A stretch of DNA of 64,000 bases from Pseudomonadota bacterium (GTDB lineage: Bacteria > Pseudomonadota > Gammaproteobacteria > Burkholderiales > Burkholderiaceae_C): NCBI GenBank assembly GCA_041159245.1, contig JBEAZV010000078.1, positions 15,304 through 79,303 on the forward strand, given 5' to 3'. This document shows positions 2,084 to 22,107 of this stretch, one piece after another (within the stretch, counting starts at the first letter, position 1; the number at the start of each line of letters is the position of its first letter). The position numbers were made by a program, and so were the translations under genes. The notes below the pieces were generated by a model, which saw nothing but the letters and a program-made list of their open reading frames with translations, had not been told where the DNA came from and searched no databases.

Positions 2084-2569
2084 TTAGTCGCGGAAGTTGT
2101 TGAACGACAGCGGCAGATCGGCCATCTCTTTGCGGATCAAGGCCATGGCCGATTGCAGATCGTCACGCTTGGCGCCGGTCACGCGCACCGCGTCGCCCTG
2201 GATGGCGGCCTGCACCTTGAGCTTGCTGTCCTTGATCAGGCGTTGCAGTTTCTTGGCGGATTCGGACTCGATGCCGCTGCGCACCTTGATCACCTGCTTG
2301 ACCTTGTCGCCGCCGGCCTTCTGGATGTCGCCGCGATCGAGAAAGCGCACGTCGACATTGCGCTTGGCGAGCTTGGCGGTGAGGATGTCTTCCACCTGTT
2401 GCAGTTGGAAGTCGGCGTCGCCCCAGAGGGTGATCTCCTTGTCCTTGACCTCGATGGCGGCCGAGGTGCCCTTGAAGTCAAAGCGCGTGCCGATCTCTTT
2501 GGCGGCATTGTCGACGGCGTTCTTGACTTCGACCATATTGGGTTCGCAGACGGTGTCGAAAGAGGGCAT
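2084..2569 (-). CDS. yajQ: YajQ family nucleotide/c-di-GMP-binding protein
   Basis: MPSFDTV...[14 protein letters not shown]...[12 protein letters not shown]...LSFNNFRD. Confidence 0.95.
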
Positions 2570-2613
2570 GCAGGGGCTCCCGGGGCTCGGTTCTCGGATG
2601 CGACAATTCTCCC

Positions 2614-3669
2614 ATGATCGTCGAGCACAACGTCCCGCTGCAGGCGTACAACAGCTTCGGCATCGTTGCTAAGGCGCGCGAGCTGGTACGGGTGCGCTCG
2701 CAGGACGACCTGTCCGCGCTCCTGGCCGACCCGGCGCGTGCGGCAGCACCCAAGTTCATCCTGGGTGGGGGCAGCAACATCGTGCTGACAGGCGACGTGA
2801 AGCCTATCGTTCTCAAGGTGGAGGTCCTGGGGCGACGGGTGGTCGACGACGGACCCCGCGGCACGGTCGTCGAGGCCGGTGCCGGCGAGAGCTGGCACGA
2901 CTTCGTCACCTGGACGCTGGACCAGGGGCTGCCCGGGTTGGAGAACCTGGCCCTGATCCCGGGCAGCGTGGGCGCCTCGCCGGTGCAGAACGTGGGCGCC
3001 TATGGCGTGGAGGTGCAGGACCGCTTTGAGTCGCTGGACGCGGTGGACCTCACGAGCGGGCAGGCGTTCACCTTGGACGCCGCGCAGTGCGCCTTCGGTT
3101 ACCGCGATTCGGTGTTCAAGCATGCCGCGCCCGAGGGCGGGCAAGGGGGTGCTGCCGGTTTCGGCCTAGCGGGGCGGGCCCTGATCCTGCGGGTGCGTTT
3201 TCGCCTGCCCAAACCCTGGAAGCCCGAGCTCTCCTACCTGGACCTGCAACGCAAGATGGCGGAGGCCGAGGTGACACAGCCCACGCCGCGGCAGGTGTAC
3301 GACTGGGTCTGCGCCATTCGCAGCGCCAAGCTGCCCGACCCGCGCGTGATCGGCAATGCCGGCAGCTTCTTCAAGAACCCCACGGTGACGCCGGAGCAGT
3401 GCCAGGACATCATCGCCCGCGAACCGAACATCGTGCACTACCCTATGCCCGATGGCTCCGTGAAGCTCGCAGCCGGCTGGCTGATTGACGCCTGCGGCTG
3501 GAAAGGCAAGTCGGTGGGGCAGGCCGGCGTGTACGAAAAGCAGGCCCTGGTCTTGGTCAATCGTGGGGGGGCCACCGGGGGCGAGGTGGTCACGCTGGCG
3601 CGGGCGATCCAGACCAGCGTGTACGAGCGGTTTGGCATCCGGCTGGAGCCGGAGCCTGTGGTGGTCTAG
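2614..3669 (+). CDS. murB: UDP-N-acetylenolpyruvoylglucosamine reductase
   Basis: [50 protein letters not shown] motifs. Confidence 0.96.
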
Positions 3670-13452: not shown

Positions 13453-13528
<76 letters not shown>

Positions 13529-13561
13529 AAAAGGCGTCGGGCGGAGTAGTCCAAAGGTTTT

Positions 13562-13637
13562 GACCCTATCGTCTAGAGGCCTAGGACATCACCCTTTCAC
13601 GGTGAGTACCGGGGTTCGAATCCCCGTAGGGTCGCCA
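13562..13637 (+). tRNA. tRNA-Glu(TTC)
   Basis: Acceptor GACCCTA/TAGGGTC; anticodon arm TCACC-CTTTCAC-GGTGA; GGTTCGAATCC T-loop; CCA end. Confidence 0.96.
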
Positions 13638-13707
13638 AATTGTTTTGGCACAAGAAGGTTGCTCTTGGCACGCGGGCTCTGGCCCGCAGCGAAATGCAAC
13701 ACTGCCT

Positions 13708-13784
13708 GGAGCGGTAGTTCAGTTGGTTAGAATACCGGCCTGTCACGCCGGGGGTCGCGGGTTCGAGTCCCGTCCGCTCCGCCA
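13708..13784 (+). tRNA. tRNA-Asp(GTC)
   Basis: Acceptor GGAGCGG/CCGCTCC; anticodon arm CCGGC-CTGTCAC-GCCGG; GGTTCGAGTCC; CCA end. Confidence 0.96.
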
Positions 13785-13871: not shown

Positions 13872-14261
13872 TCACACGCCAGCCCGCTGGATCAACTCGA
13901 TCTTGTAGCCGTCCGGGTCAGTGACAAAGGCAATCACCGTGGCGCCGCCTTGCACCGGGCCGGGCTCGCGGGTGATCTTGCCGCCAGCGGCGCGGATCTT
14001 GTCGCAGGCGGCATAGGCGTCTTCCACGCCCAGTGCGATATGGCCGTAGGCCGTCCCCAGCTCGTATTGGCTGACCCCGTGGTTGTAGGTCAGCTCGATC
14101 TCGGCGTGGTCGGGGTTGCTTCCATAGCCCACGAAGGCCAGCGAGTACTTCTGCTCGGGCCGCTCGGTGGTGCGAAGCAGCTTCATGCCCAGCACGCGGG
14201 TGTAGAAATCAATGGAGCGTTGCAGGTCACCAACGCGCAGCATGGTGTGGAGAAGTCGCAT
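13872..14261 (-). CDS. gloA: Lactoylglutathione lyase (glyoxalase I)
   Basis: [45 protein letters not shown]. Confidence 0.96.
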
Positions 14262-14285: not shown

Positions 14286-15350
14286 TCACCCCACGGGCAG
14301 GGTCGGATGTGGCCATGCAGGGGCGGCCAAGGTCGGGCCTCGTCGCCCCTCGGCCAGGGCCTGGGCGTAGGCAGGCACCACCCTCGCCGGGTCGTCGCCC
14401 AGTGCGCGCACCAGGCACAGGCCGTCGGCGCCGCAGGCGGCTGCCTGACGCGCCTGATCGGGGGCCAGGATGCCGCCGATCGCGACCACCGGGGCGTCGG
14501 CGTGTTGGCACCACCAAGCCAGGTTGTCCAGGCCCTGCGGCAGCCAGGGCATGTCCTTGGTGGTTGTGGGCCACACCGGGCCGCAGGCGATGTAGCGCGG
14601 TGAAAGGGCCCGCGCGCGGCACAACTCCCATACGCTGTGCGAGCTGATGCCCAGGGCCACGCCGCTGGCCAGCAGCGCGCGGCGGCCGTCCTCGCCCAGG
14701 GCCATCAGGTCTTCCTGTCCCAGGTGCACGGCGTCAGCGCCAAGCTCGGCGGCCAGCGCCCAGTGGTCGTTCACGAAGCACTGCGCGCCCGCGGCGCGCG
14801 CAGCGGCGATGGCGCGGGCCAGATCCTCGCGCAGACCCGCCTGCCAGAGCGCATCGGGTTGCGCCGGACGCTTGATGCGAATCTGCACGGTCTTGACGCC
14901 AGCGGCGAGGGCGCGCTCAAGCCGCTCGACATGGTCGGTGATGGCGTACAGGTCCAGGCGCGGCGCGGCGTGAGTCTTCTCGGGCGCGAACACCGTTGCC
15001 TCGCCCCACGACAGGCGCGGCAGGGCCCCGTGTAAACGCAGGAAGGCCAGTAGCACCGCGTCGGCGCCCACGTAGCCTGCAGCCAGGGCCTCCTGTGCGT
15101 GCGCTGCAAGCGTGCGGTCGTCCCCGCTTTGAGCCTGCGGCTCCTTGGCCTGGATCCAGCCGCGGGCATGCGCGCTTTCCAGCCAATGCAGGCGCGTGCC
15201 GTCGATCGCCTGCTGGTGCAGGACGCAGACGACGGCGCCGGTCTGCGCGCGCTGCGTCGCGGCCCAGGCCGGAATGGCCTCGAGGGCCATTCCGTCGGGT
15301 GGTGCCGGGAGCATCAGGCGGGACTCACGCGGGGGAAAAGGGGCGGCCAT
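14286..15350 (-). CDS. thiE: Thiamine-phosphate synthase with an extra N-terminal domain
   Basis: LYAITD...GVKTVQIRIK...FVNDHW...VHLGQED...GISSHS...YIACGPVWPTTTKDM...VVAIGGI; about 130 extra N-terminal residues; AAGGA RBS before the ATG. Confidence 0.9.
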   Translation of the reverse strand: MAAPFPPRESRLMLPAPPDGMALEAIPAWAATQRAQTGAVVCVLHQQAIDGTRLHWLESAHARGWIQAKEPQAQSGDDRTLAAHAQEALAAGYVGADAVLLAFLRLHGALPRLSWGEATVFAPEKTHAAPRLDLYAITDHVERLERALAAGVKTVQIRIKRPAQPDALWQAGLREDLARAIAAARAAGAQCFVNDHWALAAELGADAVHLGQEDLMALGEDGRRALLASGVALGISSHSVWELCRARALSPRYIACGPVWPTTTKDMPWLPQGLDNLAWWCQHADAPVVAIGGILAPDQARQAAACGADGLCLVRALGDDPARVVPAYAQALAEGRRGPTLAAPAWPHPTLPVG

Positions 15351-15368
15351 GTTCAGGTCCTTGGAAAA

Positions 15369-16136
15369 TCAACCCATTACCAGTCCACCGTCGACGAACA
15401 GCACCTGTCCGGTGACGAAAGCGCTGTGCGTGCTGGCCAGGAACAGTACCGGGCCGGCCACATCCTCGGGGCTTGCCAGGCGGCGTAGCGGCGTGGCGGC
15501 CGCGATCGCATCCCGAAAGCCGGCTCGCGTGCCGGCGCTGGCCTGCGTGGGGTAGACCAGGCCCGGCGCCACGCAGTTCACGCGCACGCCCTGCGGCCCG
15601 AGTTCGGCCGCCAGGTTGCGGGTGAAGCCCACCAGCGCCGACTTGGCGGTGGCGTAGTCGTGATACGGCACCACAGGGTGGTCGACGAGGTTGGTCGCGA
15701 TGTTCACGATGGCCCCCCGGGCGTGGCGCGCCAGCTGGGGCAGGGCGGCCCTACACACATGGTGGGCAGCGCCCACCGCACCTTCGAACTGCGCGCGGTA
15801 GGCGTCCCAGCCTACCTGGCCAAAGCGCTGGCGCTGCTCGGGGTCAAAGGCGTAGGGCGCGAAGGCGTTGTTCACCACGACGTCCAAGCGGCCGAACTCG
15901 GCGACCACAGCCTCCACCAGTCGCGACGCCTGATCCGCCTCGCGTACATCGGCCTGCAGGGCCAGCCCGTCGCCGCCGGCCTCGCGGCATTGCGTGGTGA
16001 CGGTCTCGGCCGCGGCCGTGTCACGCAAGTAGTTGACCGCCACCGCGGCGCCGTGCGCGGCGAAAGCCCGTGCGATCGCAGCGCCGATGCCGCGGCCTGC
16101 ACCGGTTACCAAGACGACTTGTCCCTGAAAGTTCAT
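15369..16136 (-). CDS. Short-chain dehydrogenase/reductase (FabG-like) in the thiamine operon
   Basis: TGAGRGIG Rossmann motif, VNNA, catalytic YATAK (YxxxK), VRVNCVAPG. Confidence 0.92.
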   Translation of the reverse strand: MNFQGQVVLVTGAGRGIGAAIARAFAAHGAAVAVNYLRDTAAAETVTTQCREAGGDGLALQADVREADQASRLVEAVVAEFGRLDVVVNNAFAPYAFDPEQRQRFGQVGWDAYRAQFEGAVGAAHHVCRAALPQLARHARGAIVNIATNLVDHPVVPYHDYATAKSALVGFTRNLAAELGPQGVRVNCVAPGLVYPTQASAGTRAGFRDAIAAATPLRRLASPEDVAGPVLFLASTHSAFVTGQVLFVDGGLVMG

Positions 16137-16138
16137 GC

Positions 16139-16195
16139 TTATTTCCCTGGCAGCAGGACGCTGGCGACGACATCATCGCGACCCGCCCGGTTCAC
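16139..16195 (-). pseudogene. Possible 18-codon remnant of an internally deleted gene (VNRAGRDDVVASVLLPGK)
   Basis: GTG overlaps the luxC-like TGA by 4 nt (GTGA), matching the ATGA overlaps at the two upstream junctions; TAA lies 2 nt before the SDR ATG. Confidence 0.35.
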
Positions 16196-17682
16196 TGGCC
16201 GTCCTCCTGCGCGTAGGGCGCGAGGCGGTCGGCTGCGCGTTCGGCACCCGCCTCGATCTCGGCGAAGCGCACCAGGTCCCGCAGGTTGCAGCCGCCATCG
16301 TGGTGCCATCCGGCCTCGGGCGAGGTCATCGTGCCCAGCGCGCACACGCGGGTCATGCCCGCCTGCGCCAGTCGCAGGGAGAGCGTGTAGAGGCGCTCCG
16401 GCGCGACCGCCACGCCTGCGGTCTGCAGGTAGGGTGCGTGCGCGGTGAGCGCGTCGGCGGCCGCCTCCAGCGTGTCCACCGCGACCACCTGAATGCAGCG
16501 CCAGCCAGCGGTGGGCGCCAGGGGCAGGGCGCGATCGCTGTAGGCGACGGCCCAGGGCGAGGCTTCGTCCCCCAGCAAGATCGGGTTGCTCGCCGCTTGC
16601 TGGCCTGAGTCGCTCCATTCCACCGCGTGCCGCCACTGGGCGATGGCCGCAGCGTCAGCCAGCCCCAGCGCCGGGCGCGGATGGCGGCGAGCCAGCGCTG
16701 CGAGCTCGCCTGCGAGGTGCTGTGCGAAATCGCGCGGGCTCAGGCGCGCGCCGCGCTCGACATAGAACACATGAGGGGAGTAGCAGCCTTGCTGCTCGTA
16801 GCGCGCGACATCCAGGGCGGCCAGGCGCGCCATCGCCGGCCCGCGCTGCGTGTCCAGCGCCTCGCGGCCTACCAGCGCCACGCCCAGCTTGTGGCCATAG
16901 GCCAGGAAGCGTGCGGTCGATGGCACCTGGGTGCGGATCTCCTGCACCGTATCCTGCCCGCCATACGCTAGCACGGTGTCGGCCTGCGCATGCAGCGTGG
17001 TGGCGGGCTCGGCTTCGCCGCCTTTCCACCACACGATGGCGAAGCAGTCGGCCAGTGCCGGGTCAACCTGCACCAGCGCGCGCGCAAACAATGTGGCGAA
17101 GACGGGCTCGGCGCTGGGCAGCTTGCCGATGTTGCCGGCCTTCACCAGCAGGCCACAGGCCAGGCTCCACAGCGGCAGCCCGGGCACGTTGCCAGCCCAG
17201 TGGTGCACCAGCAGGCGGGGTCCGAAGGCGCGCACCATGCCGCCCTTGGTCGCGGGTTGAAATTCGTCGAGCACCTTGGGGTTGGAAAAATCCTCGCTCA
17301 CGAAGCGATGCAGCTGCGGCGCGCGGAAGGTCTGCAGGTAGCGGGTGAGGCCCAGACGGACCATGGCGGCGTCATAGCCGGTGACGCGAGGCAGCAGCGC
17401 GTCGGCCTGCTGCCGCAGCGGATCGTGCGGATCCAGCAGGTGGGCCACAGCCCGGTCGATGCGGTCGATCAGGGCCGACACCGGCAAGGCCTGCAGCACC
17501 GCGCGCGCCGACTGCCGCACGCGCTGCGCAAGGGCTTGTGCCTGGGCCGGCGTGAGCACCGGCACCGCGATCTCCTGGGGTTGGTCCGGGATGGCTTCAA
17601 AGCGCAGCGTCTGCCAGGCCACCTCGGTGTCAGACAGTCCAGGCAGGTGGCCGGCTTTCCAGGGGGTGCTGGCTGCGGTCAT
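16192..17682 (-). CDS. LuxC-like acyl-CoA/acyl-protein reductase (ALDH-like fold)
   Basis: HHWAGNVPGL, GKLPSAEP, AYGGQD, YGHKLG, YEQQGCYSPH (position of the LuxC catalytic Cys); ATGA overlap with the upstream gene. Confidence 0.85.
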   Translation of the reverse strand: MTAASTPWKAGHLPGLSDTEVAWQTLRFEAIPDQPQEIAVPVLTPAQAQALAQRVRQSARAVLQALPVSALIDRIDRAVAHLLDPHDPLRQQADALLPRVTGYDAAMVRLGLTRYLQTFRAPQLHRFVSEDFSNPKVLDEFQPATKGGMVRAFGPRLLVHHWAGNVPGLPLWSLACGLLVKAGNIGKLPSAEPVFATLFARALVQVDPALADCFAIVWWKGGEAEPATTLHAQADTVLAYGGQDTVQEIRTQVPSTARFLAYGHKLGVALVGREALDTQRGPAMARLAALDVARYEQQGCYSPHVFYVERGARLSPRDFAQHLAGELAALARRHPRPALGLADAAAIAQWRHAVEWSDSGQQAASNPILLGDEASPWAVAYSDRALPLAPTAGWRCIQVVAVDTLEAAADALTAHAPYLQTAGVAVAPERLYTLSLRLAQAGMTRVCALGTMTSPEAGWHHDGGCNLRDLVRFAEIEAGAERAADRLAPYAQEDGQ

Positions 17683-18782
17683 GCCGTCCCCAGAAATTCG
17701 GCGACTGCGAGCGAGCAGCCCCGGGCTTGCGCGCCCTGCGCACGACCGAGCAAGAGGAAGCCGCCGCCCCGGGCTACACCCACGTCCTCGGTGAGGATGG
17801 TGGTGGTGGAATTGAAGCTGGCCAGGTCGCAGTGCACCAGCACGCCTGCTTCGCCCGGGGACATCTCGCGGCCCGTGAGCGGGTCCACCACGCGGCTGCG
17901 GACCCAGTGTGGTCCGCGTTTGACGGCGGGCGTGACCGCATTGCCCTCGTCATAGAACTGGCTGCTCAACTCGGTCATGCCGTACATGTTGATGCACTGA
18001 TCCCGCGCAACGCCCAGGCGGTGCGAGAGCTCGCTGTAGAAGTCCTCGGGCGCCAGCTCGCGGGACTGGCGCTTGTAGCCGCCGGTGTCCAGCAGGCGGC
18101 TGCCGGTGGGCAGCCGTACGCGCTCGCCGTCCTGCGCCATGGCGTCCAGCAGGTGCACAAAGCCGTAGCTGGCCCCCAGGACGGCCAGGGGCTGCCCGCT
18201 GCGTTCGGCCTCGTGCAGGCGGGCGCGCAGGCCGGCCAGGTCCATGCCGGCGGCTGAGAGGTACCCGGCGCTGTCTGGCGTGCCGAATTCGCGCACCGCC
18301 TGGGCCAGGTAGCGGGCGAGCGAGGAGTTGCCCAGCTCGGTCTCGGGCGGAAACAGGATGGCCATGGGCAGGCGCGGCCCACCCCGCATGAAGCACGCCG
18401 CGAAGTGGCGCCGCATCGAGAGATCCCACACCGCGATCGTCGGATGGTGGTGGCAGCCTTTGACTTCGGCGCGGGTGGTGCCACTGGTCATGAAGACGCG
18501 TTCGCAGGCCCCGATCGGCTCGCAGCTGAGGGTGGTTTCCTTGAAGGCGTTGATCGGAACGGCGGGAATGTCGCGCCAGGTCTGCACCCGCCGCGGGGTG
18601 AGGCCGCGGCGCTGACAAAAACGGCGCAGGGGCTCGTTGTGCTCGTACTGGTGCGCGAAGAGTCGTCGCGCCATGGCGTCGAAGGCCGCGTCGTCGCAGC
18701 CGTCCTGCGCCAGGAATGCGATCAGCTCGGGCACCAGGGCCCGCGTCGCGGCCGAGAGCCCTTGTGGGGTCCAGTCGCTCAT
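17679..18782 (-). CDS. LuxE/PaaK-like acyl-protein synthetase (adenylate-forming)
   Basis: DIPAVPINAFK, FMTSGTT P-loop, LDTGGYK, NMYGMTELSSQFYD, ILTEDVG, C-terminal GRAQGAQARGCS with the LuxE-type acylated Cys. Confidence 0.87.
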   Translation of the reverse strand: MSDWTPQGLSAATRALVPELIAFLAQDGCDDAAFDAMARRLFAHQYEHNEPLRRFCQRRGLTPRRVQTWRDIPAVPINAFKETTLSCEPIGACERVFMTSGTTRAEVKGCHHHPTIAVWDLSMRRHFAACFMRGGPRLPMAILFPPETELGNSSLARYLAQAVREFGTPDSAGYLSAAGMDLAGLRARLHEAERSGQPLAVLGASYGFVHLLDAMAQDGERVRLPTGSRLLDTGGYKRQSRELAPEDFYSELSHRLGVARDQCINMYGMTELSSQFYDEGNAVTPAVKRGPHWVRSRVVDPLTGREMSPGEAGVLVHCDLASFNSTTTILTEDVGVARGGGFLLLGRAQGAQARGCSLAVAEFLGTA

Positions 18783-19669
18783 CGCAAGGGCACCGTGTGC
18801 ATCGCCTGCGGCTGCCAGGCGTGATTGAGCGGCCCGCTGCCCTCGCCGGTACGCACCGGCGCGCCGGCTTGGAGCGCACCGCGCACGTAGTCACGTGCGG
18901 CCCGCACCGCGTCTGGCAAGGCCATGCCGCGTGCAAGATGGGCTGCGATGGCGCTGGATAGCGTGCACCCGGTGCCATGCGTGTTCGCGCTCGGGATACG
19001 CGGGCCGCGTAGCCACAGCCGCGCGCCATCGCGCGTCAGCAGCAGGTCGCTCACCGAGTTGCCGGCCAAGTGGCCGCCCTTGACCAGCACGGCCCGGGCT
19101 CCGCGCGCGATCAGCTCGCGTCCCGCGGCGTCCATATCGGCTTCATTTGTCAGGGGGCGGCCCACCAGCAGGGCCGCCTCGTCGAGGTTGGGGGTGACCA
19201 GCGTTGCGCGCGGGAACATCTGCGCCACCAGCACCTCGATGGCCTCGCGGTCGATCAGCGTCGCGCCGCTGGTGGCCACCATCACCGGGTCCAGTACGAC
19301 CTGCTGCAGGCGGTGGCGATCGATGGCGGTGGCCACCGCCGCCACGGTGGCCGAGGAATGCAGCATGCCCACCTTCACGGCGTCAACACCGATGTCCTCC
19401 ACGACCGCGTCGATCTGCGCGTGCAGCATGTCCAGCGGCACCGCGTGGATGGCGCGCACACCGGTGGTGTTCTGGGCGGTGAGGGCGGTGATCGCCGTCA
19501 TGCCAAAGCAGCCTAGGGCTGCGAAGGTCTTGAGGTCGGCCTGCAGGCCGGCGCCGCCGCCGCTGTCCGAGCCGGCGATGGAGAGCACGCGCGAATAGCG
19601 CAGCGTCCGCGCGATCGGCGCGGCGCCCGGGGCGGCCTGGGGGCCATCAGCAGGAGGGGACGAGGTCAC
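18779..19669 (-). CDS. thiD: Hydroxymethylpyrimidine/phosphomethylpyrimidine kinase
   Basis: VLSIAGSDSGGGAGLQADLKT, VKVGML, LDPVMVATSG, TPNLDEA, THGTGCTLSSAIAA. GTG start at 19669 chosen from the AAGGAG RBS at 19675-19680. Confidence 0.95.
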   Translation of the reverse strand: MTSSPPADGPQAAPGAAPIARTLRYSRVLSIAGSDSGGGAGLQADLKTFAALGCFGMTAITALTAQNTTGVRAIHAVPLDMLHAQIDAVVEDIGVDAVKVGMLHSSATVAAVATAIDRHRLQQVVLDPVMVATSGATLIDREAIEVLVAQMFPRATLVTPNLDEAALLVGRPLTNEADMDAAGRELIARGARAVLVKGGHLAGNSVSDLLLTRDGARLWLRGPRIPSANTHGTGCTLSSAIAAHLARGMALPDAVRAARDYVRGALQAGAPVRTGEGSGPLNHAWQPQAMHTVPLR

Positions 19670-19674
19670 TGCAA

Positions 19675-19712
19675 CTCCTTCGCAAGGGCATGAACGCAAT
19701 GCTCCGAAGGAG
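19675..19712 (-). promoter_or_regulatory. Anti-SD/SD hairpin (expression platform of the minus-strand TPP riboswitch)
   Basis: In mRNA sense CTCCTTCG (19712-19705) is a perfect 8-bp complement of the SD-containing CGAAGGAG (19682-19675). Confidence 0.7.
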
Positions 19713-19750
19713 GGACCCGCGAGGGACCGCGTGGGCGGCCAGGCGGGAGG

Positions 19751-19826
19751 GCTCTTCTTACGCCGGCATGAACCGGATCAAGTTCGCGGGTCTGCATCTC
19801 AGCACGCTAGGCGTGCACCCCGGAGC
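19751..19826 (-). ncRNA. TPP riboswitch (THI element) upstream of thiD
   Basis: Minus strand reads GCTCCGGGGTGC-ACGCCTAGCGT-GCTGAGA-TGCAG-ACCCGCGAACTTGATCCGGTTCATGCCGGCGTAAGAAGAGC, matching the GGGGTGC...CTGAGA...ACCC...GAACyTGATCnGG...CCnGCG consensus. Confidence 0.93.
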
Positions 19827-19833
19827 GAGGGAA

Positions 19834-19876: not shown

Positions 19877-19883
19877 CGCCCCT

Positions 19884-19974
19884 GCTCCGGGGTGCGGACG
19901 GCATGAAGCCGGTCGCTGAGATGGCCCAGCCAAACCCGTGAACTTGAACCGGTTCGCACCGGCGGAAGGAGAGC
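19884..19974 (+). ncRNA. TPP riboswitch (THI element) upstream of thiO
   Basis: GCTCCGGGGTGC...GCTGAGATGG...AAACCCGTGAACTTGAACCGGTTCGCACCGGCGGAAGGAGAGC; downstream CTTCTTCC (19989-19996) can pair with the thiO SD GGAAGAA (20030-20036). Confidence 0.93.
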
Positions 19975-20043
19975 CCCACCCCGCGGCCCTTCTTCCGACG
20001 CGTGCCACCCCCGCGCAACGCAACTTCGAGGAAGAAAGTCGGC

Positions 20044-21120
20044 ATGTCCCCCTCCACCGGCTCCACGTCGCTTCCGGCGACCAAGAGCCCCCTGCGGATC
20101 GCCATCGCCGGCGCCGGCCTGCTGGGGCGCCTGCTGGCGCTGCAGCTGGCCCGGGCCGGCCATGCGGTGCAGGTGTTCGACCCCGCGCCCGACGCCGGTG
20201 GCCGTGGTGCGGCGGGCTGGACGGCCGCCGGCATGCTCTCCCCGGTGGCCGAACTCGAATCGGCCGACGACAACGTCTTTGCCCTCGGGCTGCGGTCTCT
20301 GGTCCTGTGGCCCAAGCTGGTCGCTGACTTGCCCCGGTCGGTCGATGTGCACCAGCGCGGCTCGCTGTTGCTGGCGCACCGCGGCGACGAGGGCGCCGCC
20401 AGCCGGGTGGTGGACCTCGTGCGCGCCAAGGCGCCGGCGGATCATGCGCCGCAAACCCTGGGCGCCTCGGCGCTGGCCGAACTGGAGCCCGAGGTGCGCG
20501 GCGCACCCCATGCCTGGCTGCTGCCGCAGGAAGGTCAGATCGACACGGTGCAGGCCATGGGCGCGCTGGCCGAAGGCGCAGCGGCGGCCGGTACGCAATT
20601 TCACTGGGGGCAGGCGGTAGACGCCGTCTCCTCACGCCAGCTGCAGCTCGCAGGGCGGCGCCTGGAGTTCGACTGGGTGTTCGATGTGCGTGGCACCGGC
20701 GCCCGCCCGCAGCTGTCGGTGCGGGGTGTGCGCGGCGAGATCCTGCACCTGCATGCGCCCGGCGTGCGCCTCTCGCGCCCCATCCGTCTGCTGCACCCGC
20801 GCCATCGTGTCTACATCGTGCCGCGCGCGGGTGACCGGGTGCTGGTGGGCGCCAGCGAGATCGAGAGCGAAGACCGCTCGCCTATCTCCTTGCGCAGTAC
20901 CGTCGAACTCCTGGCCGCGGCCCACAGCGTGCTCCCCGCCCTGGCCGAGGCGCGTGTGGTGCACACCGAGACCAATCTGCGTCCCGCTTTGCCCGACAAC
21001 CTGCCCGTCCTGTCCACCGAGCCGGGGCTCACGCAGGTCAACGGCCTGTTTCGCCATGGCTGGCTGATCGCGCCAGCGCTGGTGGAGCAGGCCCTGCAAT
21101 CCCTGGAGATATCCGCATGA
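20044..21120 (+). CDS. thiO: Glycine oxidase ThiO
   Basis: IAIAGAGLLG FAD motif, AAGMLSP, VRGVRGEI, NLRP, NGLFRHGWLIAP; ATG at 20044 follows the riboswitch-sequestered SD. Confidence 0.92.
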   Translation: MSPSTGSTSLPATKSPLRIAIAGAGLLGRLLALQLARAGHAVQVFDPAPDAGGRGAAGWTAAGMLSPVAELESADDNVFALGLRSLVLWPKLVADLPRSVDVHQRGSLLLAHRGDEGAASRVVDLVRAKAPADHAPQTLGASALAELEPEVRGAPHAWLLPQEGQIDTVQAMGALAEGAAAAGTQFHWGQAVDAVSSRQLQLAGRRLEFDWVFDVRGTGARPQLSVRGVRGEILHLHAPGVRLSRPIRLLHPRHRVYIVPRAGDRVLVGASEIESEDRSPISLRSTVELLAAAHSVLPALAEARVVHTETNLRPALPDNLPVLSTEPGLTQVNGLFRHGWLIAPALVEQALQSLEISA

Positions 21121-21320
21121 TGTCCATCATCGTCAACGGTCAGCCGCGTGAGGTGCCGCAGGGGAGCACGCTGGCCGACCTCGTGGCCCAGCTGGCCGAT
21201 TCGCCTCAGGCGCTCGCCACCGCCGTGAACCAGGAGTTCGTGGCACGGGACGCTCGCGCCGCGCGGACCCTGCAGGCAGGCGACCAGGTCTTCACCTTCC
21301 AACCCATCACCGGAGGCTGA
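21117..21320 (+). CDS. thiS: Sulfur carrier protein ThiS
   Basis: IIVNGQPR...AVNQEFV...C-terminal ITGG. Confidence 0.95.
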
Positions 21321-21324
21321 TCCC

Positions 21325-22107
21325 ATGCCCTTGCCCCTCGACATCGGCGGCGCCCGCCTGGAAAGCCGCTTCTTCCTCGGCACGGCCGGTTATCCCTCGC
21401 CCAAGGTGCTGCAGGATGCCATCGCGGCTTCTGGCACGCAGGTGGTGACCGTAGGCCTCAAGCGCCAGCTGGCGGGCGATGGCCAGCCCAATGACTTCCT
21501 GGCCATGGTGCGTGCCACCGGCGCGCGCCTGCTGCCCAATACCGCGGGCTGCCGCACCGCGAACGAGGCGGTGACGCTCTCGCGCATGGCGCGTGAGTTG
21601 TTCGGCACGCACTGGATCAAGCTGGAGGTGGTGGGCGACGAGCACACCCTGCAGCCCGATCCCTTCGAGCTGGTGGAAGCGGCGCGCACCCTGGTGCGGG
21701 ACGGCTTCGAGGTCTTCCCCTATTGCACCGACGACCTCGTGAGCTGCCAGCGCTTGCTGGACGTCGGCTGCAAGATCCTGATGCCCTGGGGCGCCCCGAT
21801 CGGTTCAGGGCAGGGGCTGCTCAATCCCACTGCGCTGCGCACGCTGCGCGCTCGCCTGCCCGATGTGCCCCTGGTGGTGGATGCAGGCATCGGCTCGCCG
21901 CGGGACGCGGTGCAGGCCATGGAGCTGGGGTTCGATGCCATCTTGCTCAATAGCGCGGTGGCCCAGGCGCGCGACCCGGTGACGATGGCGCGCGCCTTCC
22001 GCCTCGCCGTGGAGTCGGGTCGGCTGGCGTGGGAGGCGGGCATCATGGCCCGCCAGGACATGGCGGTCCCGACCACACCGGTGACCGGCCGTCCCTTCGT
22101 GCTCTGA
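21325..22107 (+). CDS. thiG: Thiazole synthase ThiG
   Basis: [49 protein letters not shown]. Confidence 0.96.

Follow-up and report, generated by a model that had tools for sequence, protein, structure and literature searches.

Short-chain dehydrogenases/reductases (SDRs) reduce carbonyls, the reactions of ThiD and ThiE are established, and thiamine pyrophosphate (TPP) riboswitches act as OFF switches. One SDR gene, oarX, was reportedly flagged as a thiamine-regulon gene by Rodionov in 2002. It is TPP-regulated in 87 genomes, and OarX has been proposed to reduce either an activated carboxyl derivative, i.e., of 4-amino-2-methylpyrimidine-5-carboxylate (PCA), 4-methylthiazole-5-acetate (MTA) or thiamin acetic acid, or a thiazolone (Oliveira-Filho, Rodionov and Hanson 2024, PMC11223231). 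LuxC-LuxE of Photobacterium is a fatty-acid reductase with an acyl relay, acting on myristate; its active parts include the Lys238/Arg355 pair of LuxE, the flexible C-terminal TRxxKGCxLS of the same protein, whose cysteine carries the acyl group, and the catalytic cysteine of LuxC, which the 7xc6 paper numbers Cys296 (PMC9157457). Here we describe an operon that joins relatives of these proteins under a TPP riboswitch, in a 64,000-nucleotide (nt) stretch of contig JBEAZV010000078.1 from a Pseudomonadota bacterium (GCA_041159245.1; Burkholderiaceae_C), hereafter the window. Its genes for a LuxE-like protein, a LuxC-like protein and a probable OarX-type SDR belong to a conserved mobile module under predicted TPP riboswitch control, and on balance we think it probable, if by no great measure, that the module uses ATP and NADPH to reduce a thiamine-derived carboxylate to the alcohol, with the pyrimidine as the favoured substrate.

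The module resembles classical OarX systems in that the window SDR scores best on the model that classical OarX matches (NF006393/PRK08642), though slightly short of its cutoff, is under predicted TPP-riboswitch control and clusters with thi genes. The published hypothesis, that an activated carboxyl derivative of thiamin or of one of its moieties is reduced, coincides with ours. It differs in having a LuxE/LuxC pair and a transporter, unreported in PMC11223231, and in that its SDRs form their own clade. With LuxC-LuxE of Photobacterium (7xc6) it shares the two Pfam families, the LuxE Lys/Cys motif, the LuxC cysteine and an aldehyde dehydrogenase (ALDH)-like fold, but it is predicted to be TPP-regulated, has no luxA, luxB or luxD, and is partnered with an SDR and nucleobase/THI5-type transporters, because of which its substrate is presumably a small heteroaromatic acid and not myristate. 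Salvage by ThiXYZ, YlmB, TenA and ThiD, which takes formylaminopyrimidine to HMP (4-amino-5-hydroxymethyl-2-methylpyrimidine), likewise has NMT1/THI5-family ATP-binding cassette (ABC) uptake, TPP regulation and a product that goes to ThiD; that route is hydrolytic, whereas the one proposed for the module would be reductive (ATP plus NADPH), and the module's binding protein is distant from ThiY. Carboxylic acid reductases of the Nocardia/Mycobacterium type, built of adenylation, carrier and reductase domains, also turn an acid into an aldehyde with ATP and NADPH, followed by an alcohol dehydrogenase or reductase. In contrast, the module consists of two proteins, its acyl carrier would be a cysteine on the flexible LuxE tail and not a phosphopantetheinyl arm, and its reductase is ALDH-like where theirs is SDR-like.

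A first-pass annotation of the window, made from the letters alone, had called the pathway undescribed. The concept was in fact partly anticipated, carboxyl reduction by OarX having been published in 2024 (PMC11223231), but a link of LuxE or LuxC to thiamine was not found in the literature searched; within that literature the LuxE/LuxC front end and the swapping of transporters are new.

Results

The riboswitch-headed operon of the window

Five open reading frames (ORFs) follow an aptamer on one strand, in the order thiD, LuxE-like, LuxC-like, SDR and thiE:

19738..19832, minus strand: TPP riboswitch aptamer (RF00059) heading the thiD operon; 62.2 bits, gathering score 54.3, model positions 1-105
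19675..19712, minus strand: expression platform, with the anti-Shine-Dalgarno (anti-SD) and Shine-Dalgarno (SD) sequences of thiD; from complementarity and predicted folds
18779..19669, minus strand: thiD, HMP/HMP-P kinase, 296 amino acids (aa) from GTG 19669; PF08543 317 bits, TIGR00097 322.4 against a cutoff of 204.95
17679..18782, minus strand: LuxE-like acyl-protein synthetase, 367 aa; PF04443 69.2 bits against 24.9, covering 44-388 of 391
16192..17682, minus strand: LuxC-like acyl-thioester reductase, 496 aa, ALDH-like fold, catalytic Cys300; PF05893 283 bits
15369..16136, minus strand: probable OarX-family SDR, 255 aa, LuxCE-linked subclade; adh_short_C2 196 bits
14286..15350, minus strand: thiE, long-form thiamine-phosphate synthase, 354 aa; PF02581 144 bits at aa 136-317, NF008933 160 bits

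The anti-SD CTCCTTCG (19712..19705) is the exact complement over 8 bp of CGAAGGAG (19682..19675), a stretch that includes the SD of thiD and is separated by 5 nt from the GTG at 19669; this GTG, rather than an upstream TTG, is most likely the thiD start. The 8-bp helix is present in both the minimum free energy and the centroid predicted folds, and, with a fold z-score of only -1.69, the case for the anti-SD rests on its exact complementarity and not on energy. An intrinsic terminator was looked for in the thiD leader and none was found, and control most likely acts on translation. Downstream, the ATGA overlaps of the thiD stop with the LuxE-like start, and of the LuxE-like with the LuxC-like gene, were read directly. 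The riboswitch (62.2 bits) with its 8-bp anti-SD over the thiD ribosome-binding site, and the five co-oriented genes with their overlaps, are thus as the first-pass annotation had described them.

The LuxE-like and LuxC-like proteins

The LuxE-like protein belongs to the ANL-type adenylating enzyme family, lacks the C-terminal subdomain and has a C-terminal RGCSL cysteine motif; its sole solved homologue is LuxE (7xc6_E). Its Lys237, in GGYK, aligns with Lys238 of LuxE, in GGWK, and its Cys356 lies within AQARGC356SLA, a [KR]GCxL motif that resembles the TRxxKGCxLS of LuxE. When 76-78 homologues are aligned, FMTSGT, GGYK, NMYGMTELS and RGCSLA show no or almost no variation, and GCSLA does not vary in 76. 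In the LuxC-like protein, QQGC300YS aligns with QQACFS of LuxC (YEQQGCYSPH vs YDQQACFSTQ in 7xc6_A) and QQGCYS is invariant in 78 sequences. Its AlphaFold model (predicted local distance difference test 71.7) has 7xc6_A as the top PDB match, with an E value of 4.6e-19 and a TM score of 0.54-0.56, followed by ALDH-superfamily enzymes.

Both proteins are about 20% identical to the LuxE and LuxC of luminous bacteria, and both lie below the NCBIfam equivalogs, the LuxE-like at 65.3 bits against a cutoff of 550 (NF052244) and the LuxC-like at 73.4 bits against 750 (NF052251). These alignments show conservation of the Lys and Cys residues required for the acyl relay from LuxE to LuxC, and we conclude that the pair probably works like LuxE/LuxC while belonging to a different clade, i.e., the two are not Lux orthologues. 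The ratio of non-synonymous to synonymous substitution rates for luxE, luxC and the SDR gene is 0.11-0.19, the same as for thiD; the three genes are intact and under purifying selection. The motifs that had been listed for the LuxE-like protein, the LuxC-like protein and the SDR are all present, the Lux-like ones being conserved over 76-78 homologues.

Recurrence of the module behind TPP aptamers

A LuxC-like scan over one genome per GTDB species gave at least 541 genomes with a relative; the locus counts below refer to the best 80 of these, all of them Burkholderiales, from Ramlibacter, Variovorax, Achromobacter, Bordetella, Comamonas, Acidovorax, Polaromonas and Janthinobacterium. The order luxE, luxC, three ABC-transporter genes and SDR is collinear in 80/80 loci. 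In 44 of the 80, thiD is directly 5' of the module, often with thiE and thiOSG downstream, and the others are stand-alone units of six genes. Since the genes flanking stand-alone modules are unrelated (targeted Pfam scans), the module is a self-contained unit. Upstream sequence is available for 75 loci, and in each of them thiD or luxE is immediately preceded by a TPP aptamer (73 by aptamer pattern and 2 by Rfam; the contigs of the other five end before the upstream region), with a median of 62-67 nt from aptamer to first gene in the 73 loci.

Loci outside the Betaproteobacteria came from a tblastn search of PLSDB:

Azospirillum chromid: six-gene module; TPP aptamer 59.6 bits
Pantoea megaplasmids: luxE-luxC-SDR, no transporter; TPP aptamer 66.6 bits
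Priestia megaterium plasmid: six-gene module; TPP aptamer 49 bits
Lactiplantibacillus plantarum 10-kb plasmid: NCS2 permease-luxE-luxC-SDR; TPP aptamer 67.6 bits
Niallia taxi megaplasmid (L094): ThiW-NCS2-luxE-luxC-SDR; tandem TPP aptamers of 85 and 72.9 bits, 2465..2761
Pseudomonas silvicola plasmid p1 (L095, 4961..8218): frameshifted copy of the trio; TPP aptamer 63.8 bits

In Niallia the operon further includes ThiW, a 'thiamine-precursor transporter' of a separate Pfam family. Every locus examined, whether from Alpha-, Beta- or Gammaproteobacteria or from Bacillota (four bacterial classes), has a TPP aptamer ahead of the module, and the module is a conserved and mobile one under predicted TPP riboswitch control. 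It had been predicted that, if the enzymes serve thiamine metabolism, homologous trios should mostly be linked to TPP riboswitches or thi genes; this was found in 75/75 Burkholderiales loci and in six other genera. A 2013 survey of riboswitch regulons covered the Betaproteobacteria by Burkholderia and Ralstonia only, and the module is in the TPP regulon of neither.

Two side observations concern these loci. The P. silvicola trio is unannotated and gives two or three tblastn pieces per gene, representing either a decaying copy or assembly frameshifts. An Acidovorax locus (L065, 2490..2606, minus strand) has an ALIL pseudoknot, a frameshift element of insertion sequences, a few hundred bases 5' of the module riboswitch.

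In RefSeq, where four loci (L090, L091, L092 and L093) were inspected, the LuxE-like protein is named 'long-chain fatty acid--CoA ligase' or 'acyl-CoA synthetase', the LuxC-like protein 'acyl-CoA reductase' with the Gene Ontology (GO) term 'bioluminescence', and the SDR '3-oxoacyl-ACP reductase'. Taken at their word, these fatty-acid, acyl-CoA and 3-oxoacyl-ACP names would place the trio in ordinary lipid metabolism, making fatty aldehydes or alcohols with an incidental riboswitch linkage, and the only characterised homologues do reduce myristate (PMC9157457). We consider this explanation very improbable in view of the low scores on the true LuxE and LuxC equivalogs, the TPP aptamer before the module in all loci examined, the position of the module between thiD and thiE, and the co-transcribed transporters, which are of nucleobase or THI5 type and none of which is lipid-related. 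The fatty-acid and bioluminescence labels are probably misleading for this clade.

Transporter genes and their loss in the window

The common form of the module encodes a transporter, apparently the ancestral state. A ThiXYZ-type ABC system (ATPase, permease and NMT1/THI5-family binding protein) stands between luxC and the SDR gene in 80/80 related Burkholderiales loci and is also present in Azospirillum and Priestia; it is absent from the window, where the spacer between luxC and the SDR gene measures 55 nt. Compared with its closest relative, a Ramlibacter locus (L001; 83% DNA identity), the window is collinear to the luxC stop and resumes 35 nt before the SDR start; it lacks the 2524 bp of L001 in which the genes for the ATPase, the permease and the binding protein lie (blastn). 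The spacer contains the following remnant:

16139..16180, minus strand: deletion scar, the last 13 codons of the ABC binding-protein gene (RDDVVASVLLPGK, then the stop); the L001 binding protein ends ...RMADVVASDLLPGK

Because the spacer still encodes the C-terminus of the binding protein, the absence of the transporter is a deletion in the window's lineage and not an insertion elsewhere. The scar junction was also found in contigs of three other freshwater metagenomes, with single-nucleotide polymorphisms and a 3-nt indel at 16171, and in a JGI contig. The first-pass annotation had spoken of three inserted enzymes; the trio is indeed present, but this description understates the unit, whose common form also encodes the transporter that the window has lost. 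In metatranscriptome run X9, two small contigs lie on the luxC 3' end, one of them reaching the scar, so RNA is present, though uninformative on regulation.

The binding protein of the module belongs to the NMT1/THI5 family (171-177 bits). Between Priestia (L092, 9000..9956) and Ramlibacter (L001, 5928..6917) it is 62% identical, against 45% for LuxC, and an identity above that of LuxC suggests horizontal spread together with a tight constraint on ligand binding. The alternative transporter of the module is a nucleobase permease of the NCS2 type, encoded by a gene that overlaps luxE, and the Pantoea loci show that the trio without a transporter is a viable architecture.

The SDR and the OarX family

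The window SDR has the TGxxRGIGA and YxxxK motifs, and its best NCBIfam model is NF006393/PRK08642 at 286.7 bits, slightly short of the cutoff (292), with the next family at 199. Classical OarX proteins, reached by a search of 1.84 billion representatives followed through cluster names and encoding contigs, score 421-435 on NF006393 (435 for Rhodococcus OarX), against 276-299 for the module SDRs of five other genera. The window SDR is 42% identical to the Rhodococcus OarX, whose gene has a 69.8-bit TPP riboswitch upstream and fmnO downstream. In another relative outside the module (L087) a 79.7-bit TPP riboswitch is followed by oarX and then thiM. A distance tree groups the LuxCE-linked SDRs of Proteobacteria and Bacillota together, apart from two classical OarX proteins; the LuxCE-linked SDRs are 47-68% identical mutually and 40-46% identical to classical OarX. 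By these sequence measures the window SDR is probably OarX-type, in a clade separate from the oarX-fmnO and oarX-thiM genes. As the first-pass annotation had said, an SDR, oarX, has been noted in THI regulons (PMC11223231), and the window SDR is probably of its type.

Occasional 'acyl-CoA synthetase' neighbours of oarX have been noted, with no mention of LuxE and LuxC (PMC11223231). As RefSeq gives LuxE-like genes the same label, those neighbours may be LuxE-like genes.

In Rhodococcus sp. OK302 (L084, 7917..10132) the classical OarX gene is followed by that of a Bac_luciferase-family monooxygenase (FmnO). Partners of OarX-family reductases are thus of either the LuxA/B or the LuxC/E family, and in the lux system both families deal with aldehydes. 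It is a speculative thought that the whole OarX family may reduce a thiamine-moiety aldehyde that arises from differing precursors, through LuxCE here and through a flavin monooxygenase in Actinobacteria.

Other genes of the window

Divergent from the thiD operon is the de novo thiazole arm, with an aptamer of its own:

19878..19987, plus strand: second TPP aptamer, before thiO and divergent from the first; 48.5 bits, E 1.9e-8, local search
20044..22107, plus strand: thiO-thiS-thiG; ORFs, with PF01266, PF02597 and PF05690 called on the identical JGI contig L081

The second aptamer has a longer P3 insert and scores below the gathering score of 54.3, and a default Rfam scan misses it. At the other end of the operon, thiE starts 18 nt past the SDR gene and has its own AAGGA 7 nt ahead of the ATG at 15350. 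Its product is ThiE rather than TenI, with 125-160 bits on ThiE models vs 30.8 on TenI; it does not reach the ThiE equivalog cut-offs, probably owing to its long form with an N-terminal extension. This extension of about 135 aa (14946..15350, minus strand) had no Pfam match, and its length is kept in related loci, where ThiE matches are 310-350 aa.

The window yielded no ThiC signature and no ThiM homologue, and luxA, luxB and luxD were found neither in the window nor in related loci, both of which agree with what had been claimed at first. A glyoxalase I gene 3' of thiE (13872..14261, minus strand) was considered as a part of the module and rejected, because it is a housekeeping GloA whose synteny does not extend beyond close relatives. 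Three tRNA genes are clustered just past it (13453..13781, plus strand).

Discussion

We propose that at low TPP the riboswitch would leave the thiD ribosome-binding site open and the translationally coupled genes would be expressed. The LuxE-like protein would adenylate a carboxylic acid from thiamine breakdown and load the acyl group onto the cysteine of its C-terminal motif, the LuxC-like protein would take it over on Cys300 and reduce the thioester to the aldehyde with NADPH, and the OarX-type SDR would turn the aldehyde into a primary alcohol, which would go on to ThiD/ThiE or ThiM/ThiE. Both the identity of the substrate and the serial action of the three enzymes are what we infer from sequence. 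Along the favoured route, PCA would pass through the 5-formyl pyrimidine to HMP, which would be phosphorylated by ThiD and then coupled to thiazole phosphate by ThiE. A pyrimidine carboxylate is favoured because the transporters are of the NMT1/THI5 ABC or NCS2 nucleobase type, and because thiD has been recruited into the operon while thiM is absent within 10 kb (0/80 Burkholderiales loci, and none in plasmid loci). We also count the ThiW of Niallia in its favour. In its most specific form, our proposal is that non-luminous LuxE/LuxC homologues constitute a two-protein carboxylic-acid reductase dedicated to vitamin salvage which, with an OarX-type reductase and a nucleobase/THI5-type transporter, recycles PCA into HMP; we offer this tentatively, as a serious possibility that falls somewhat short of probable.

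Several observations weigh against recycling of the pyrimidine. Between the binding protein of the module and ThiY the similarity is distant (23.5 bits), and the window, like Pantoea, is without a dedicated transporter by which the substrate would be taken up. Classical OarX lies beside thiM under a TPP riboswitch (L087), and classical oarX genes cluster with thiazole genes (PMC11223231); if specificity holds family-wide, this clustering with thiM and thiazole genes would indicate a thiazole product. Furthermore, the closest structural relative of LuxE is PaaK, which acts on aryl-acetate (PMC9157457) and would as a model suit thiazole acetate. Together with the thiOSG genes that adjoin the module in many loci, and with ThiW in the Niallia operon, which can be set on this side as well, these points suggest that the module might instead reduce 4-methylthiazole-5-acetic acid (or thiamin acetic acid), by way of the aldehyde, to 4-methyl-5-(2-hydroxyethyl)thiazole (HET) (or thiamin). 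We judge this distinctly unlikely: no thiM was found within the 10 kb around the 80 Burkholderiales loci or the plasmid loci, thiD is the kinase gene that was recruited, the transporters belong to nucleobase or pyrimidine types, and the LuxCE-linked SDRs form a separate clade (40-46% identical to thiM- or fmnO-linked OarX) whose specificity may differ. Moreover, thiamin as the product would need a thiamin kinase or pyrophosphokinase, none of which is seen here. The original preference for a pyrimidine carboxylate has gained from the transporters of the relatives and lost from the ties of classical OarX to thiM and the thiazole genes.

Also unfavourable is the finding that Corynebacterium glutamicum, which has oarX-fmnO, cannot use PCA, MTA, thiamin acetic acid, oxo-HET or oxo-thiamin, after which further-modified derivatives were suggested as OarX substrates (PMC11223231). 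This growth test has no direct bearing on the module, because no LuxE/LuxC has been reported beside that oarX. Nonetheless, the exclusion of these five obvious oxidation products (PMC11223231) would fit a different thiamine-related reaction, acting on some other thiamine-derived or antivitamin compound (a modified carboxylate, or detoxification) or yielding the aldehyde as the useful product, and the pairing of OarX with a luciferase-family flavin monooxygenase in Actinobacteria (L084) hints at the aldehyde as a shared intermediate. We regard such a reaction as unlikely, given that TPP-OFF control with thiD and thiE would suit precursor supply better than detoxification and that the acid-aldehyde-alcohol logic of the three enzymes is chemically complete.

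On the reading that we prefer, reduction of a thiamine-derived carboxylate, the module would supply the activation and first reduction steps upstream of the OarX-type enzyme, an orphan since 2002. The question of OarX is directly testable because the module occurs in tractable organisms, its hosts including Comamonas testosteroni, Variovorax, Achromobacter, Pantoea dispersa, Azospirillum brasilense, Priestia megaterium and, on a plasmid, L. plantarum. If the proposal is true, the OarX family would function as reductases of thiamine-moiety aldehydes, fed by LuxCE or, in Actinobacteria, by FmnO, and the widespread LuxE/LuxC homologues of non-luminous bacteria would gain a first physiological role, correcting the labels 'long-chain fatty acid--CoA ligase' and GO 'bioluminescence'. 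PCA, until now a dead-end thiamine catabolite, would become a new vitamer in environmental B1 cycling. A reductive route would then join thiamine salvage, with a bearing on B1 exchange in freshwater, soil and plant-associated communities.

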